A stretch of 64,000 bases of DNA from an uncultured Gammaproteobacteria bacterium. Lineage in GTDB: Bacteria; Patescibacteriota; Microgenomatia; Daviesbacterales; UBA10151. The translations under genes were made by a program, and so were the position numbers. The stretch covers positions 1,311 through 65,310 of the forward strand of contig CAYHYM010000002.1 in assembly GCA_964360965.1 (NCBI GenBank), given 5' to 3'. Under the pieces are notes generated by a model, which saw nothing but the letters and a program-made list of their open reading frames with translations, made no database searches and had not been told where the DNA came from. Numbering within the stretch: the stretch's first letter is position 1; every line of letters begins with the position of its first letter. Positions 41,199 through 48,936 of this stretch are shown here, one piece after another.

Positions 41199-41513
41199 AT
41201 GGCTGAAGAAAAATTTGATCAATCATCCCGACCTGTTCCTCTTGCAGAGAGTGATCTTTCTCCTATTAAACCTTTAACTGCTTCTAACGTGCTAAAAATT
41301 GCCCAAAGATACATCGAAGCTTCATTCGCCAATAGAAGATTTAACAAAATAATTGCTCAAGCCACAGGAGATATAGATGAAGAAGTCATTATGGAATTTC
41401 ATTATGAGGCAGGACAAGCTGATGCATTCAGGAAAGTCTTAAAAATGGTGGGCCAGGACAATTTAGTATCCAAAGTCAATAAAGGTCTGGATCAAGTGAT
41501 TGAACAGCCTTAA
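41199..41513 (+). CDS. hypothetical protein
   Basis: 104-aa ORF immediately downstream. Confidence 0.45.
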   Translation: MAEEKFDQSSRPVPLAESDLSPIKPLTASNVLKIAQRYIEASFANRRFNKIIAQATGDIDEEVIMEFHYEAGQADAFRKVLKMVGQDNLVSKVNKGLDQVIEQP

Positions 41514-42115
41514 AGGGAGAGAATTTGGGAATAATCGTGCGGGACAAAACTTAACTTTCTTGGTAAAATTTTATGGTCCTTCCATCTTCGACGGTTTTTG
41601 GGGTCAACTTGTATCTGGATCGAATGGTTAAAACCTGCCGGCTCAATATTGGGCAAACCGCTGATATTTAATTCCGCTTGTTCACCTTCATCAGGATAAA
41701 GAAGATATCCGAACCTTCCAACCTGTAAATGTTCTATCAGATGAACGATTTTTAACTGATCAGCATCTACCTCACCCAACCTAATCCTGATGGCAATTTC
41801 CCAGGCAGTAATTCTCCCATCCTCTGGTAAATACTCCAAGAAATGTTGTTTGGCCCCAAAACCCAAAAAATGCTGACTCCATAAAATGGCACCGTCATCA
41901 GTTGCAAAAGTACCATTAGGCTTTAAGCTTTCAGGCTTAATTCCTGACTTTAAACGCCTGATAATGGGAGGCAAATCCCAAGTAGCACTTAGTTTTGTAT
42001 GCACTAATTTATCCAATTTGTTACAATCCCCATAATGGAAGTTGTCAAAGCGCCTGATCCCAGGCTTAAAATTCAGACAAAACCTGTCAAAAAAATAAAT
42101 CCAGCTCTTTTGCAA
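41510..42115 (-). CDS. hypothetical protein (start uncertain; annotated ATG overlaps the def start)
   Basis: 201-aa ORF. Its 5' 80 nt overlap the def N-terminus. Confidence 0.4.
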   Translation of the reverse strand: MQKSWIYFFDRFCLNFKPGIRRFDNFHYGDCNKLDKLVHTKLSATWDLPPIIRRLKSGIKPESLKPNGTFATDDGAILWSQHFLGFGAKQHFLEYLPEDGRITAWEIAIRIRLGEVDADQLKIVHLIEHLQVGRFGYLLYPDEGEQAELNISGLPNIEPAGFNHSIQIQVDPKNRRRWKDHKILPRKLSFVPHDYSQILSL

Positions 42116-43632: not shown

Positions 43633-45477
43633 TTAGACTTTAAGATCACCATAACGAGCGTAAATATGACCTCTATGTCCAATTGCTTCCACCAGACAGT
43701 TGTTACCACCCAAAGGATTGTAAACTATTCTAAAATCACCTACTCTATCAACTAATCTTTTACCACCGGACCACTCAATCATTTTAGGTCGAACTTGACC
43801 TAAGGCAAACATCCTGATATGCTCACTCATTTTATCAACATCTTTTGGCCTGGGATGTCCCCCCATTAGTTCAGTCAGTGAGAATCTGGAAGAATTTATA
43901 ACATGATATTTAGGTTCTGGCAACTCTGTTGTATTAACTGGTTTAGGCCCAGCCAAATATTGAGCTATAGGAGTGAACACTTTACTCACCTTATGATGCT
44001 CCCTCTTTGGAAATGGTAACCTAATAGGCTCTTGCCAAACAGCTTCTTGATCTACTTGAGCAGGTTGAACTTCTGCTTGTTCCACTCTGCGATAATCAGA
44101 CAATCTGATTGGTTCCCGATTGGGATGCATTTTTCTGGCTTCTTCTAATATGGGAGGCAAGATATCGGAAAATACTGCTTTGATAAAATGTTCGTGATCT
44201 ACTACAAGTTTGGCTGGCATTCCATAAAATTTACCATTCTGACCAATTTCTAAAGTAAGATGAGTTTCATCATCAGCAAAATGCAAAATAAGGACAAGAG
44301 TTTGTTTGTTTTGGCAAGTCAAAGTTATATTAGTTACAACATGACCTTCCGGCATTTTAAAATTTAGTTGTCTGTGAGGTGAACGCATCACATCAGAATA
44401 TAAATCCTTAAAATAGAAATCTATCAATCTATCAATTAAATTATCCGAATTATTATAAAGACCTTCAAGTTCTGTATCTGTCAGCTTATTTTTACCATAA
44501 AATTGAGCAAATTGATCTAGAGCCCGACCATCCGTTTTTTCATCATAATGTTGGTATTTTTCTAAATTAGCAGGTAAAGTTTTTTCTCTATATGCCTCTT
44601 TGGCCCCCATCTCCATTGTTTCTAATATCCCGCTGTTTCTCCAGAAGAATGGGGAAAAGGAAGTTTCTACCCTGGTTTGAAAAAGCTTGATGGCAGATGA
44701 AGGTGTAATGCCAAGCCTTCCTGGCATGTATATGCCCAAAGCCAGTGGCAATCCTGGCTCGGTGTAGGCTAAAGTTTTACGAAAGGAGAACTCATCCTTA
44801 AGACCCATATCAAAGTTAACCATTAAATCTTTATAGTAGTCAAAGTAAGCGACCAGCCTATTATGCAAAGGATGTAAGGAGGGGAAAACTAAATTTTTCT
44901 GCTCGGGCCTGGCAAATTCTTGTGTTGCCAAATAGATCATGGCCTGGAGCATAACCGGAGATCTTCCAGCATGAAACATCCGATTTATTCTTCTGATACC
45001 TTCTGTGGGAAGGGGCAGGGACATTTGCTCTATATCAAAAAAAGAAGTTCCTTCAGAAGTTATTAAACCCAAAAAATTACTGCCACCTAATTCTTGAGAA
45101 TAAAAATCCTGCTCTTTGAATCTTTTGATTGCTGATTGGGGAAGAGTAACTAAACCTTTGTTTTCTGTTTGAGCCCGCTCCAAAAATATGGACAGTCCTC
45201 TTCTAACTTCCAGCCAGCGGCTTATAAAAGGTTTACCCCTATAAATAACTTTAGTGGGTTGGTGATCTTGTTCGTCAACAATCTGATTCCATTCATCTAT
45301 AGTTTCACCTAATAAATTATAATGTCTATTGTATTGCCCAGCTAAAGCCTGTGCTGAAGATGAATTTGATGACCTATTTTTGCGTCTGTCGGCACGGTTA
45401 CCTAGCCCAACTTGAGGCTGGGTTTCTTGTTGGCCAGGTTGTATTTCCCTTCTGTCAAACATTTTATTAGGCAACAA
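43633..45477 (-). CDS. large hypothetical protein with a C-terminal RelE/ParE-like toxin-fold domain
   Basis: C-terminus RVGDFRIVYNPLGGNNCLVEAIGHRGHIY matches the RelE/ParE core RVGDYRIIY...IL.IGHRKDIY. The N-terminal ~540 aa are unrecognised. Confidence 0.5.
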   Translation of the reverse strand: MLPNKMFDRREIQPGQQETQPQVGLGNRADRRKNRSSNSSSAQALAGQYNRHYNLLGETIDEWNQIVDEQDHQPTKVIYRGKPFISRWLEVRRGLSIFLERAQTENKGLVTLPQSAIKRFKEQDFYSQELGGSNFLGLITSEGTSFFDIEQMSLPLPTEGIRRINRMFHAGRSPVMLQAMIYLATQEFARPEQKNLVFPSLHPLHNRLVAYFDYYKDLMVNFDMGLKDEFSFRKTLAYTEPGLPLALGIYMPGRLGITPSSAIKLFQTRVETSFSPFFWRNSGILETMEMGAKEAYREKTLPANLEKYQHYDEKTDGRALDQFAQFYGKNKLTDTELEGLYNNSDNLIDRLIDFYFKDLYSDVMRSPHRQLNFKMPEGHVVTNITLTCQNKQTLVLILHFADDETHLTLEIGQNGKFYGMPAKLVVDHEHFIKAVFSDILPPILEEARKMHPNREPIRLSDYRRVEQAEVQPAQVDQEAVWQEPIRLPFPKREHHKVSKVFTPIAQYLAGPKPVNTTELPEPKYHVINSSRFSLTELMGGHPRPKDVDKMSEHIRMFALGQVRPKMIEWSGGKRLVDRVGDFRIVYNPLGGNNCLVEAIGHRGHIYARYGDLKV

Positions 45478-45700
45478 CCGAAGCTTCAGTTACTTCGGGT
45501 CTCTTATATGGGGCTTTCACAATCCTTAAACACTTAGTACAATATTTTTTACCTTTATATACATGCAAATTAGGTTTTTGGACTCTTTTGTGAATAGGCG
45601 CTCTTAGAGCCCACACACCTCCTGCTCCTGAGGATCCTTTTTTATGCCTGGAGAAAGAGATCATGTTCTTACCTTTACCACAACGGTAACAGATTAACAT
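45467..45700 (-). CDS. rpmB: 50S ribosomal protein L28
   Basis: CYRCGKG N-terminus. SFSRHKK...KPNLH matches the bL28 pattern (N.SH..N.TKR...PNL). Confidence 0.65.
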   Translation of the reverse strand: MLICYRCGKGKNMISFSRHKKGSSGAGGVWALRAPIHKRVQKPNLHVYKGKKYCTKCLRIVKAPYKRPEVTEASVVA

Positions 45701-45716
45701 ATGGTAGAATTATATC

Positions 45717-46707: not shown

Positions 46708-46782
46708 GCCTCCTTAGCTCAATGGTAGAGCAACGGTTCTGTAAACCGTCGACGACAGTTCGATTTCTGTCAGGAGGCTCCA
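46708..46782 (+). tRNA. tRNA, probable anticodon UGU (Thr), atypical anticodon loop (apparent C33) and 8-nt T-loop
   Basis: Cloverleaf: acceptor gcctcct/aggaggc, D-arm gctc-aatggta-gagc, anticodon arm acggt-tctgtaa-accgt, T-arm gacag-ttcgattt-ctgtc. CCA is encoded. Confidence 0.55.
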
Positions 46783-46807
46783 TGTTTACAGTGAGCGAAG
46801 CCGAACT

Positions 46808-46879
46808 GCCGACATAGCTTAGTGGCAAAGCACTTCATTGGTAATGAAGAGAGCGCGGGTTCGATCCCCGCTGTCGGCT
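46808..46879 (+). tRNA. tRNA-Thr (anticodon GGU)
   Basis: Acceptor gccgaca/tgtcggc. Anticodon arm cttca-ttGGTaa-tgaag. T-arm gcggg-ttcgatc-cccgc. Confidence 0.8.
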
Positions 46880-46914
46880 CTGGATTTACTTAAGACTGAA
46901 GACTTAATACAAAA

Positions 46915-47271
46915 ATGGCATTCAGATTTAGGAATTTTCCGATTTATGAGGATATACGTTCGTTCATTAAAGATATCTATCAATTGGCTAATAAGCTACC
47001 AAAACAGGAACAATTTGAACTAGCTTCTCAATTAAGGCGCGCAGCTACCTCTATATTACTTAATCTAGCAGAAGGTTCTATGAAAAGATCTGATGCGGAG
47101 TTTAATCGTTTTCTAATGATCTCAGTGGGTTCAGTAAGCGAAATTGTAGCTATTTTAGACGTTTGTTTTGACCTGGATTATATTAGTGCTCCAACACATC
47201 AACAATTTATGCTAAAATGTGAATCTATTGCTAAAAGACTCTATGGTTTTAGTAGAAGATTAAAATCTTAA
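46915..47271 (+). CDS. four-helix-bundle protein (23S rRNA intervening-sequence protein family)
   Basis: LAEGS motif and LL.IS.GS...E pattern of the TIGR02436-like family. Located among tRNA genes. Confidence 0.6.
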   Translation: MAFRFRNFPIYEDIRSFIKDIYQLANKLPKQEQFELASQLRRAATSILLNLAEGSMKRSDAEFNRFLMISVGSVSEIVAILDVCFDLDYISAPTHQQFMLKCESIAKRLYGFSRRLKS

Positions 47272-47304
47272 GTCTTTAGTGTTATGTATTAAGTATTTTG
47301 TAAT

Positions 47305-47478
47305 ATGGCTAAAAAGGGAAATAGACAATTAATATCTTTTCAATGTTCTGAATGTAAAAACAGGAATTATACCTCATCAAAAAACACTATCAATAGCAAA
47401 GATCGTCTTACTTTGAACAAATTTTGTAAACATTGCAGAAAGCATACAGAGCACCAAGAGGTCAAAATAGGCAAATAA
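47305..47478 (+). CDS. rpmG: 50S ribosomal protein L33
   Basis: Translation MAKKGNRQLISFQCSECKNRNYTSSKNTINSKDRLTLNKFCKHCRKHTEHQEVKIGK (57 aa, C4 zinc ribbon). Absent from the ORF track because it is under 60 aa. Confidence 0.85.
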   Translation: MAKKGNRQLISFQCSECKNRNYTSSKNTINSKDRLTLNKFCKHCRKHTEHQEVKIGK

Positions 47479-48344: not shown

Positions 48345-48647
48345 GTGGCTTTTGGTATTAAGTTTAATGAGGAAAAAAATGAATTACTGAAAGCTACAAG
48401 AAAAGTTAGTTTTGAGGATGTCTTGGAGGCTTTCAAGGAAGAGAAACTGTTAGCTGATATTGCTCACCCAAGTCAAAAGCATCCTCATCAGAAATTATAT
48501 GTAATAGAAATTAAAGGGTATGCATATGCAGTTCCCTATGTTTTAGATACTAGAAAACAAGAAATATTTTTGAAAACAGTCTATCCAAGTAGAACGTTGA
48601 CAAAAATATATTTGAAAGGTGAAAAGTATGAAAAAAAGAAAAAGTAA
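48345..48647 (+). CDS. brnT: BrnT-like type II toxin (DUF497 ribonuclease)
   Basis: IKFNEEKNELLKATRKVSFEDVLEAF matches the BrnT signature FEWDE.KN..N..KHGVSFEEA. Confidence 0.7.
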   Translation: MAFGIKFNEEKNELLKATRKVSFEDVLEAFKEEKLLADIAHPSQKHPHQKLYVIEIKGYAYAVPYVLDTRKQEIFLKTVYPSRTLTKIYLKGEKYEKKKK

Positions 48648-48936
48648 TCTTTTTGATAATTTGCTTTTAGATAAGCAAGAAAAACTACTGGAAGAATCCT
48701 TGGAAAGAGGCGAATTTGAGGACAGTCCTAATTTTGAAAATACTAAGAGAATGTTGCAGGAAGCGGCAACCCGGTATTCGGAGTTGCATACTTCCAAACC
48801 AGTTACACTTAGGATCAACCAACTTGATTTAATTAAAATTAAAGCCAAAGCCAAACGAAAACAAATCCCCTATCAAACGCTGATCGGGGCTTTACTTCAT
48901 GAGTATGCTGTAGGAGAAAAAGATTTAAGTCTATAA
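48619..48936 (+). CDS. brnA: BrnA-like antitoxin
   Basis: C-terminal IKIKAKAKRKQIPYQTLIGALLHEYAVG matches the BrnA motif KAKA...GIPYQTLI..LH.YA.G. Overlaps brnT. Confidence 0.7.
   Translation: MKSMKKRKSNLFDNLLLDKQEKLLEESLERGEFEDSPNFENTKRMLQEAATRYSELHTSKPVTLRINQLDLIKIKAKAKRKQIPYQTLIGALLHEYAVGEKDLSL

Follow-up and report, generated by a model that had tools for sequence, protein, structure and literature searches.

A RelE-like fold fused to an uncharacterised ~410-residue domain in Daviesbacteria-like Microgenomates: a candidate self-restrained effector

RelE-type ribosome-dependent nucleases are classically small toxins that are curbed by a separate antitoxin. What, then, does a RelE-like domain do at the end of a protein of probably 609 amino acids (aa) that has no antitoxin gene beside it and lies directly behind a gene resembling that of ribosomal protein L28? 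This question is raised by a minus-strand gene (43633..45462) in the 64,000-nucleotide (nt) stretch analysed here, hereafter the window, which covers positions 1,311 to 65,310 of contig CAYHYM010000002.1. The gene joins a C-terminal RelE/HigB-like domain to a ~410-aa N-terminal domain, and the family of fused proteins to which it belongs departs from the classical arrangement. We tentatively favour the reading that the product is an effector of the RelE type that restrains itself within a single chain, its partner domain being a new regulatory module. The RelE fold itself is known; what is new here is a RelE-fold effector carried on an uncharacterised domain of this size.

The first-pass annotation had placed a RelE/ParE catalytic core in the last ~45 residues of the protein, which ends in ...RVGDFRIVYNPLGGNNCLVEAIGHRGHIYARYGDLKV. 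The presence of such a core was upheld by profile matches and by the modelled fold, and the residues are indeed RelE-like, but the unit is really a domain of ~90 aa (aa ~521-609). Residues are numbered throughout in a 614-aa frame, in which the ATG at 45462 is M6. The full-length AlphaFold2 model, built from a 42-sequence alignment, reached a mean predicted local distance difference test (pLDDT) score of 85.2 and a predicted template-modelling score (pTM) of 0.83, and the RelE/HigB-like domain modelled alone (aa 521-614; 43636..43917, minus strand) reached a pLDDT of 91.8. Its topology is β1-α1-α2 followed by a four-stranded antiparallel sheet (aa ~521-609) and a short C-terminal helix; α1 and α2 are both short, a feature shared with RelE. 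The structural comparison of the C-terminus with the RelE/ParE fold, on which the first-pass annotation had staked its claim, found the fold present. With the full-length model, the best three Foldseek matches in the PDB were Mycobacterium tuberculosis RelE toxins (prob 0.93-0.99). With the domain-only model, the top eleven were all RelE-family toxins, led by 2khe (Thermus thermophilus RelE; prob 1.00, TM-score 0.64/0.67, root-mean-square deviation (rmsd) 3.5 Å over 93 columns) and including M. tuberculosis RelE1 (9g12), RelE2 (3g5o), HigB (5ycl/6kml), archaeal RelE (aRelE, 3bpq) and PfiT. The RelE domain of Cami1 (8phb), YafQ and BrnT followed at lower ranks, and the matches in BFVD were small viral RelE-like proteins only.

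Profile searches pointed in the same direction. A profile of 39 C-domains matched 2khe (E=0.0066), 3g5o_B, 9g12 and 1wmi in the PDB; a single-sequence search with the C-terminus had given sialidase matches, which were spurious, and the profile was needed. The Pfam model PF05016 (ParE_toxin) scored 13.5 bits on the full-length window protein and 17.2 bits on the domain alone, below the 23-bit gathering threshold, and was matched by 15 of the 39 homologous C-domains at E<=1 (best E=1.2e-5). The PHROGs matches of the family were limited to 'RelE-like toxin', found in 6 of 42 members. By these scores the tie to PF05016 is real but distant, and the modelled fold makes membership of the RelE/ParE superfamily solid at the fold level. 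The domain is basic (median isoelectric point (pI) 9.8) and forms a small subfamily of its own; when 1.84 billion cluster representatives were searched with a profile, the 198 matches did not include canonical RelE/ParE toxins.

The catalytic set of Escherichia coli RelE comprises K52, K54, R61, R81 and Y87. We counted residues over 133 family sequences and took the register from an hhalign alignment to E. coli RelE. In this register, R578 corresponds to RelE R56, R583 to R61, R602 to R81 and Y606 to Y87. Position 583 is Arg in 127/133 sequences (95%), and position 602 is Arg in 112/132 (85%), with His in 12 and Lys in 8 others. Position 578 is Arg in 101 and Lys in 24 sequences (125 together). 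The family also has a motif of its own after helix 2, F-E-x-G, in which Glu is found in 108/133 members.

The open reading frame (ORF) is a genuine gene. It runs uninterrupted from the first TTG to the stop codon (43633..45477, minus strand, 614 aa in the ORF list), and its GC content equals that of its surroundings. The nearest homologues, P0003 (MLDRREVL...) and P0007 (MLDRREIQ...), align with the window protein (MFDRREIQ...) from M6, and the orthologue in the complete Daviesbacteria genome CP066688 starts with an ATG 27 nt past its upstream ORF. Therefore, the product is likely a 609-aa protein that starts at ATG 45462 and ends at TAA (43633-43635), with a 4-nt spacer (45463-45466) after the stop codon of the upstream ORF (45467-45469). 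The 614-aa protein of the first-pass annotation thus stands as an ORF and not as a likely length, and the 11-nt overlap with rpmB reported there probably arose from taking the TTG at 45477 as the start. The tight coupling to the small upstream gene was retained: the spacer is 4 nt, and the terminator scan found no terminator-like site between the two genes on their strand. The two genes probably share one transcript, judging from this layout. An Rfam scan identified no leader or regulatory RNA, only three tRNAs in the vicinity.

No antitoxin-sized gene lies beside the fusion gene, as had been noted before. Its neighbours are the L28-like ORF upstream and fmt, which is convergent and lies 156 nt downstream. 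Moreover, no conserved small partner gene was found across ten homologous loci.

We then consider the part of the protein that precedes the RelE-like domain. It begins with a basic, disordered tail (aa 6-39; 45361..45462, minus strand; pLDDT 42-57, median pI 10.3) that carries a conserved N-R-x-x-R-R motif (by alignment column, R28 in 96/116, R31 in 94/119 and R32 in 102/118). The N-terminal domain follows (aa 40-450, ~410 aa; 44128..45360, minus strand) with pLDDT mostly of 90-98; in the model it consists largely of helices with one four-stranded sheet at aa 371-412. It is about neutral in pI, and the C-domain is basic. Conserved motifs of the N-domain are G.SL.DIE.M, YFDYY, P(A/G)RLGITPSS..K, YQ.YD...D, HLTLE and YG.P, and its conserved polar residues are D148, E150, D213, R254, S261, K264, D316, T408 and E410. 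The linker (aa 451-520; 43918..44127, minus strand) is disordered over 461-496, with pLDDT <50 at 461-486 and 494-496 and of 78-80 around a helix at 503-509. Within the linker, aa 491-496 form a basic patch that is conserved, K-x-x-(K/R)(R/K)(R/K) (K491, [KR]494-496). Just N-terminal of the RelE-like domain, at aa 500-514, lies a conserved hydrophobic helix with a proline motif (L-T-P-hydrophobic-x-x-hydrophobic-L...P-x-hydrophobic-P). No hydrophobic segment, signal peptide or transmembrane segment was found in the window protein (maximum Kyte-Doolittle 19-residue score 0.98); a soluble cytoplasmic protein is therefore predicted.

The N-domain resembled nothing in the collections searched. Sequence comparisons with Pfam, PADLOC, PHROGs and the PDB turned up no recurrent match, Foldseek yielded nothing credible in the PDB or BFVD, and the domain showed no known enzymatic motif or fold. 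The first-pass annotation had described the region before the core as unlike any recognised family, and this held for the ~520 aa that precede the RelE-like domain, for which no family match emerged. The PADLOC scan of the family gave only weak, single-member and mutually inconsistent matches. Kinase-like Foldseek matches of the full model (eEF2K, Vps34, ATR, ROP5) were noise (prob <=0.1, rmsd 11-19 Å). A reading of HLTLE-x-D-K as a PD-(D/E)xK motif was also rejected; neither the D nor the K is conserved, and the window protein has G and Q in their places.

The two domains are separable as well as fused. One complete gene of 465 aa, P0087, consists of the N-domain alone, and P0154 (303 aa) carries the same RelE-like C-domain after an unrelated 200-aa N-terminus. 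The modules therefore shuffle. In fused members, mean pairwise identity is 25% for the N-domain and 25% for the C-domain; by this measure, the two domains of the fused majority have diverged at an equal rate.

The family is small. A word-indexed search of 5.8 billion proteins (clustered at 90%) returned 42 full-length homologues of 550-668 aa, none of them Pfam-annotated, and those that were named belonged to Candidatus Daviesbacteria or the 'Microgenomates group'. The exhaustive profile search of the 1.84 billion cluster representatives gave 198 matches at E<=1e-3, of which 132 reached E<=1e-30; the full-length matches span the 598-position profile end to end in nearly every case, and those at E<=1e-30 are nearly all 560-630 aa long. 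A scan of GTDB species representatives, which yielded five loci, used one narrow peptide pattern and is not a full taxonomic census. A tblastn search of 50,697 phage records gave no match to the fusion protein, and a literature search for a described RelE fusion in the candidate phyla radiation (CPR) gave nothing relevant. Judged from these homologues, the family is confined to Daviesbacteria-like Microgenomates, a small CPR clade. Two contigs of metagenome-assembled genomes, L011 (CAYUJR010000007.1) and L013 (CAZDTO010000082.1), carry family members at 32% identity and are titled 'uncultured Gammaproteobacteria bacterium', unlike the Daviesbacteria or Microgenomates labels of the other named members.

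How might such a protein work? The reading that we favour builds on a real gene, its fused architecture, a basic RelE-like fold with equivalents of R61, R81 and Y87, the absence of an antitoxin gene, an accessory distribution with fast, modular evolution, and a neighbourhood rich in toxin-antitoxin genes. We infer three further parts, namely an RNase or ribosome-directed activity, autoinhibition and a trigger. The C-terminal RelE/HigB-fold domain of ~90 aa would be the effector; by analogy with its family, it would enter the ribosomal A site, there to cleave the mRNA or block it. A flexible, basic linker of ~60 aa would tether it to the ~410-aa N-domain, which would hold it in check and possibly act as a sensor. 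The effector would then be freed by a trigger, for which infection, stress, cleavage of the linker by a protease, or the binding of a ligand or protein are candidates. Because no separate antitoxin was found and both domains have co-diverged, the N-domain may restrain the effector, and the conserved helix just upstream of the RelE-like domain may add to this restraint. We regard an intramolecular antitoxin, an idea that the first-pass annotation had also raised, as the best available reading of the N-domain.

Several observations weigh against the favoured reading. The equivalents of K52 and K54 (positions 574 and 576) are not conserved. Position 606 is Tyr in 77 sequences (59%) and Phe in 39 (30%). 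In the window copy, the family motif reads F-A-L-G, with A558 (codon 43804..43806) in place of the usual Glu; Ala occurs here in only 3/133 members. An inspection for catalytic equivalents, as the first-pass annotation had proposed, thus gave a mixed picture, with those of R61, R81 and Y87 present and those of K52 and K54 not conserved. The conserved Arg positions are also present in the Pfam ParE_toxin model, which includes ParE as well as RelE-type toxins, and are as such no proof of RNase activity. Furthermore, the N-domain showed no recognisable sensor or antitoxin features, the family showed no recurrent match to any PADLOC defence model, and 7 of 10 informative family loci lie near an L28-like gene, to which there may be a functional link. 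On the other hand, catalytic residues vary widely among true RelE-family RNases (YoeB, HigB, YafQ). Since the Arg positions are shared with the ParE_toxin model and the catalytic residues are this variable among RelE RNases, sequence cannot decide activity.

The same departures from RelE would suit a different explanation, in which the RelE fold is catalytically dead and works as an adaptor, binding RNA, the ribosome or a protein and thereby targeting or regulating some activity of the N-domain. We consider this rather unlikely, though less so than the other rivals. The lack of conservation at the two lysine positions, the Phe found in place of Y606 and the A558 of the window copy speak for it, as do the many conserved polar residues of the N-domain and its occurrence alone in P0087. 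However, R583 and R602 have remained conserved at 85-95%, and the domain has remained basic, in a family that has diverged to 25% identity; catalytic residues are variable among bona fide RelE-family RNases, and the N-domain showed no known enzymatic motif or fold.

A second alternative arises from the genomic neighbourhood. It holds that the protein is a housekeeping factor of the ribosome specific to this lineage, which would be co-expressed from one operon with a divergent bL28-like protein and would serve, for instance, in rescue, hibernation or quality control on the reduced ribosome of CPR bacteria. The flanks in the window are ordinary chromosomal genes (Wzy_C/TPR, def, fmt, M50 peptidase, two tRNA-Thr genes, rpmG and tRNA-Trp), and the recurring order among family loci is M50 peptidase (divergent), L28-like ORF, family gene, fmt (convergent), def, a ~86-aa ORF, Wzy_C/TPR and mreB. 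In the window, and likewise in five further distinct loci, the L28-like ORF lies directly upstream of the family gene; copies were located at L001 5737-5973, L004 4752-4967, L006 4762-4980, L007 3113-3358 and L009 4755-4985. In a seventh locus, one inserted gene separates the two within 1 kb. The genes for P0087 and P0154 are also both downstream of an L28-like gene, and some of the other contexts of the family are related to translation (ychF/rpsF-ssb-rpsR, rpsB). Microgenomates are also reported to lack bL9 and to have altered L1-stalk features (PMC9297842).

Viewed from the L28 side, however, the association runs one way. We sampled 35 metagenomic L28-like loci, 27 of which had at least 800 nt downstream, and a family member followed the L28-like gene in only 3 of these 27 informative loci. 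Elsewhere the same slot is occupied by unrelated genes: a GH5-like secreted protein (L018 4306-5958, on a 1-Mb contig), an acidic 527-aa ORFan (L020 4475-6058, and likewise in L021), and various ORFans of 65-305 aa downstream of the L28-like match in L022-L056. A Pfam scan of ten other slot occupants gave no match. The flanks of L018 and L020/L021 are as close to those of the window (def 65%, M50 peptidase 81%, L28-like ORF 79-84% identical) as are those of family-bearing genomes. The family protein itself is 55% identical to the window copy in one locus and 29-35% in the others, and the flanking genes in the same loci are 60-68% (def), 49-63% (fmt) and 66-82% (M50 peptidase) identical; these values indicate that the family protein evolves much faster than the genes around it. 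Members also occur away from the L28-like slot (L005, L008 and L011); unrelated sites of members are after ychF and before rpsF-ssb-rpsR, after thyA-folA-glyA, and after an unknown 197-aa gene.

Examined from the side of the L28-like gene, its adjacency to the family gene did not hold up as a conserved operon. Equally related genomes with unrelated genes in the slot, the count of 3/27 and the fast divergence together indicate that the linkage is largely positional: the adjacency marks an accessory slot of variable content that follows a conserved small gene, and a conserved operon partnership is unsupported. The earlier suggestion that the rpmB linkage might betray a dedicated ribosome factor is weakened accordingly, and from its sequence divergence the gene looks accessory and fast-evolving, not a dedicated partner of its L28-like neighbour. 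We regard the housekeeping factor as improbable. A related idea, that the RelE fold would act as an A-site probe in rescue, hibernation or quality control, within a clade-specific, ribosome-bound factor encoded on the same mRNA as a cryptic and highly divergent bL28, with the N-domain, as a new fold, anchoring or regulating it, seems to us slightly more improbable still.

Several further observations concern the slot and its occupants. Toxin-antitoxin (TA) modules found in or near it comprise PIN/MazE, AbiEii, HicA and a BrnT/BrnA-like pair. The genes of P0087 and its neighbours form a same-strand string (L016 1-4886; L015 955-4088) of an L28-like ORF, a 79-aa ORF, a 400-aa ORF, P0087 and a 539-aa ORF, all without a Pfam match; in the 539-aa protein, a ...SPD...IDAIVECK... 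stretch resembles, by eye, a PD-(D/E)xK nuclease motif. In L017, the L28-like ORF (92-340) is followed after 3 nt by P0154 (344-1255).

Is the small upstream gene rpmB, as it was first labelled? This 77-aa zinc-ribbon ORF (C4..C7 / C54..C57; 45467..45700, minus strand, from the ORF list) is a candidate divergent bL28. The label has some backing in a weak likeness to L28, but the curated models miss the ORF: Pfam Ribosomal_L28 (PF00830) gave E=6.7 and 7.2 bits, below its 27-bit cutoff, and NCBIfam gave no match. Its sequence matches in the PDB were to Deinococcus radiodurans L28 only (E=0.023, 0.38 and 0.71), and its profile matched PDB L28 at E=0.21-0.40. An hhalign comparison with Thermus L28 aligned 35 columns (pairwise E=0.0039, probability 8.6%) over a ...G-G-V...I-x-K-R-x-Q-x-P-N-L motif. 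Its homologues number 414, at 65-90% identity, and nearly all lack a name; one of them, a JGI record, is called 'ribosomal protein L28'. Like bL28, the ORF is of similar size and basic, and its N-terminal C-x-x-C-G-K ... G-G-V ... K-R-V-Q-x-P-N-L-H resembles L28 of the Thermus/Deinococcus type; unlike bL28, it has a short CxxC zinc ribbon in its C-terminal half, in place of the usual beta-hairpin region. The 65-89% identity of its copies between loci fits a ribosomal protein. On these weak similarities, a highly divergent bL28 is plausible. bL28 has been reported absent from Daviesbacteria (Tsurumaki et al., PMC9297842); the ORF may be this 'missing' protein and, if so, the picture of ribosomal protein loss in this lineage would change. 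In the complete genome CP066688, the L28-like ORF is missing from the table of called genes. In the window, the divergent starts of the M50 peptidase (45717) and the L28-like ORF (45700) are only 16 nt apart (45701..45716); therefore, each promoter lies inside the coding region of the other gene or further off.

Two further rivals concern the kind of toxin. The C-domain might be a ParE-type poison of DNA gyrase fused to a regulatory domain, since PF05016 is the Pfam model that it matches best and Foldseek also returned ParE structures. We consider this very unlikely: PF05016 also covers RelE-type toxins, the helices are short, and the ParE structures reached prob 0.2-0.8, below the 0.97-1.00 of RelE/HigB. 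Polymorphic toxins with a BECR/RelE fold are a known class, and the layout of a large N-terminal region before a small toxin fold recalls a secreted toxin with an N-terminal delivery region and a downstream immunity protein, but this most improbable of the readings is already largely refuted, as we found no signal peptide, transmembrane segment, or secretion or trafficking domain and no conserved downstream immunity gene (fmt is convergent), and the C-terminus co-diverges with the N-domain instead of being swapped among members.

Other features of the window lie outside the fusion gene and its slot partner. About 3 kb from the fusion gene, a BrnT-like toxin gene (48345..48647, plus strand; weak, E=0.0027) overlaps a CopG/BrnA-like antitoxin gene (48619..48936, plus strand; E=2.8e-5), and by these matches the pair (48345..48936) is a probable type II TA module. 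The stretch 46708..47478 holds tandem tRNA-Thr genes (TGT, GGT), then a gene for a 23S-rRNA-intervening-sequence protein (IVP; 46915..47271; PF05635, E=4e-30) and then rpmG (47305..47478); homologues of the IVP gene also lie beside the slot in L003. On the other side of the fusion gene, a 201-aa ORF without a Pfam match (41510..42115, minus strand) lies antisense between a 104-aa ORF and def; it overlaps the start of def by 81 nt and is possibly spurious. In L001 and L007, the interval from the family gene to fmt holds unannotated genes of 162-308 aa on that strand.

Finally, we compared the fusion protein with known systems. Like the RelE/HigB toxins (2khe, 9g12, 3g5o, 5ycl/6kml), its last ~90 aa adopt the same predicted fold (TM-score 0.58-0.67, prob 0.97-1.00), carry the R-x-G-D-Y-R-I (R56/R61) and G-x-R-x(3)-Y (R81/Y87) motifs and have a basic surface charge; unlike RelE, they do not conserve the two catalytic lysines. 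A type II RelBE toxin is a stand-alone protein of ~85-100 aa, whereas here the domain ends a 609-aa protein, an arrangement near-universal in full-length homologues, and no adjacent gene encodes an antitoxin of the RelB, HigA, ParD or YefM/Phd type. Therefore, the protein is not part of a type II RelBE module. With ParE toxins (PF05016; 3kxe, 5ceg, 8c24), it shares the superfamily and the best Pfam model; it differs in its lower fold score against them and its short helices, and no gyrase link is evident.

The idea of a toxin and its restraint in one chain has precedents. EzeT is a fused toxin-antitoxin protein. So is CapRel (CapRel-SJ46), which senses phage proteins (PMC9712102). Like these, the present protein would combine a toxin with a restraining or sensing module in the same chain, has no separate antitoxin gene, and is accessory and fast-evolving; unlike them, it has a RelE fold and not a toxSAS or zeta-kinase toxin, and its toxin part is C-terminal. 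The closest parallel in layout is Cami1 (8phb/8phj; Foldseek prob 0.60-0.75), in which a large regulatory N-terminal module precedes a C-terminal RelE fold. Cami1, the CARF-RelE effector of type III CRISPR systems, sets a precedent for a RelE fusion that depends on the ribosome and is gated by a ligand (PMC11229360). The N-domain described here is unrelated to that of Cami1, the family had no recurrent CARF match (1/42 members in PADLOC, E=0.0057), and no CRISPR-cas genes were found in the inspected neighbourhoods of family loci. Lacking a CARF domain and a CRISPR context, the protein is therefore not Cami1. The fusion protein would at most work like RelBE or Cami1 and belongs to neither. If the N-domain is a sensor or an intramolecular antitoxin, it would constitute a new regulatory module, in a group (the CPR bacteria) for which very little has been learnt about stress and defence; and if the favoured reading is true, this family would represent a second, independent wiring of the RelE fold to a regulatory domain, after Cami1.

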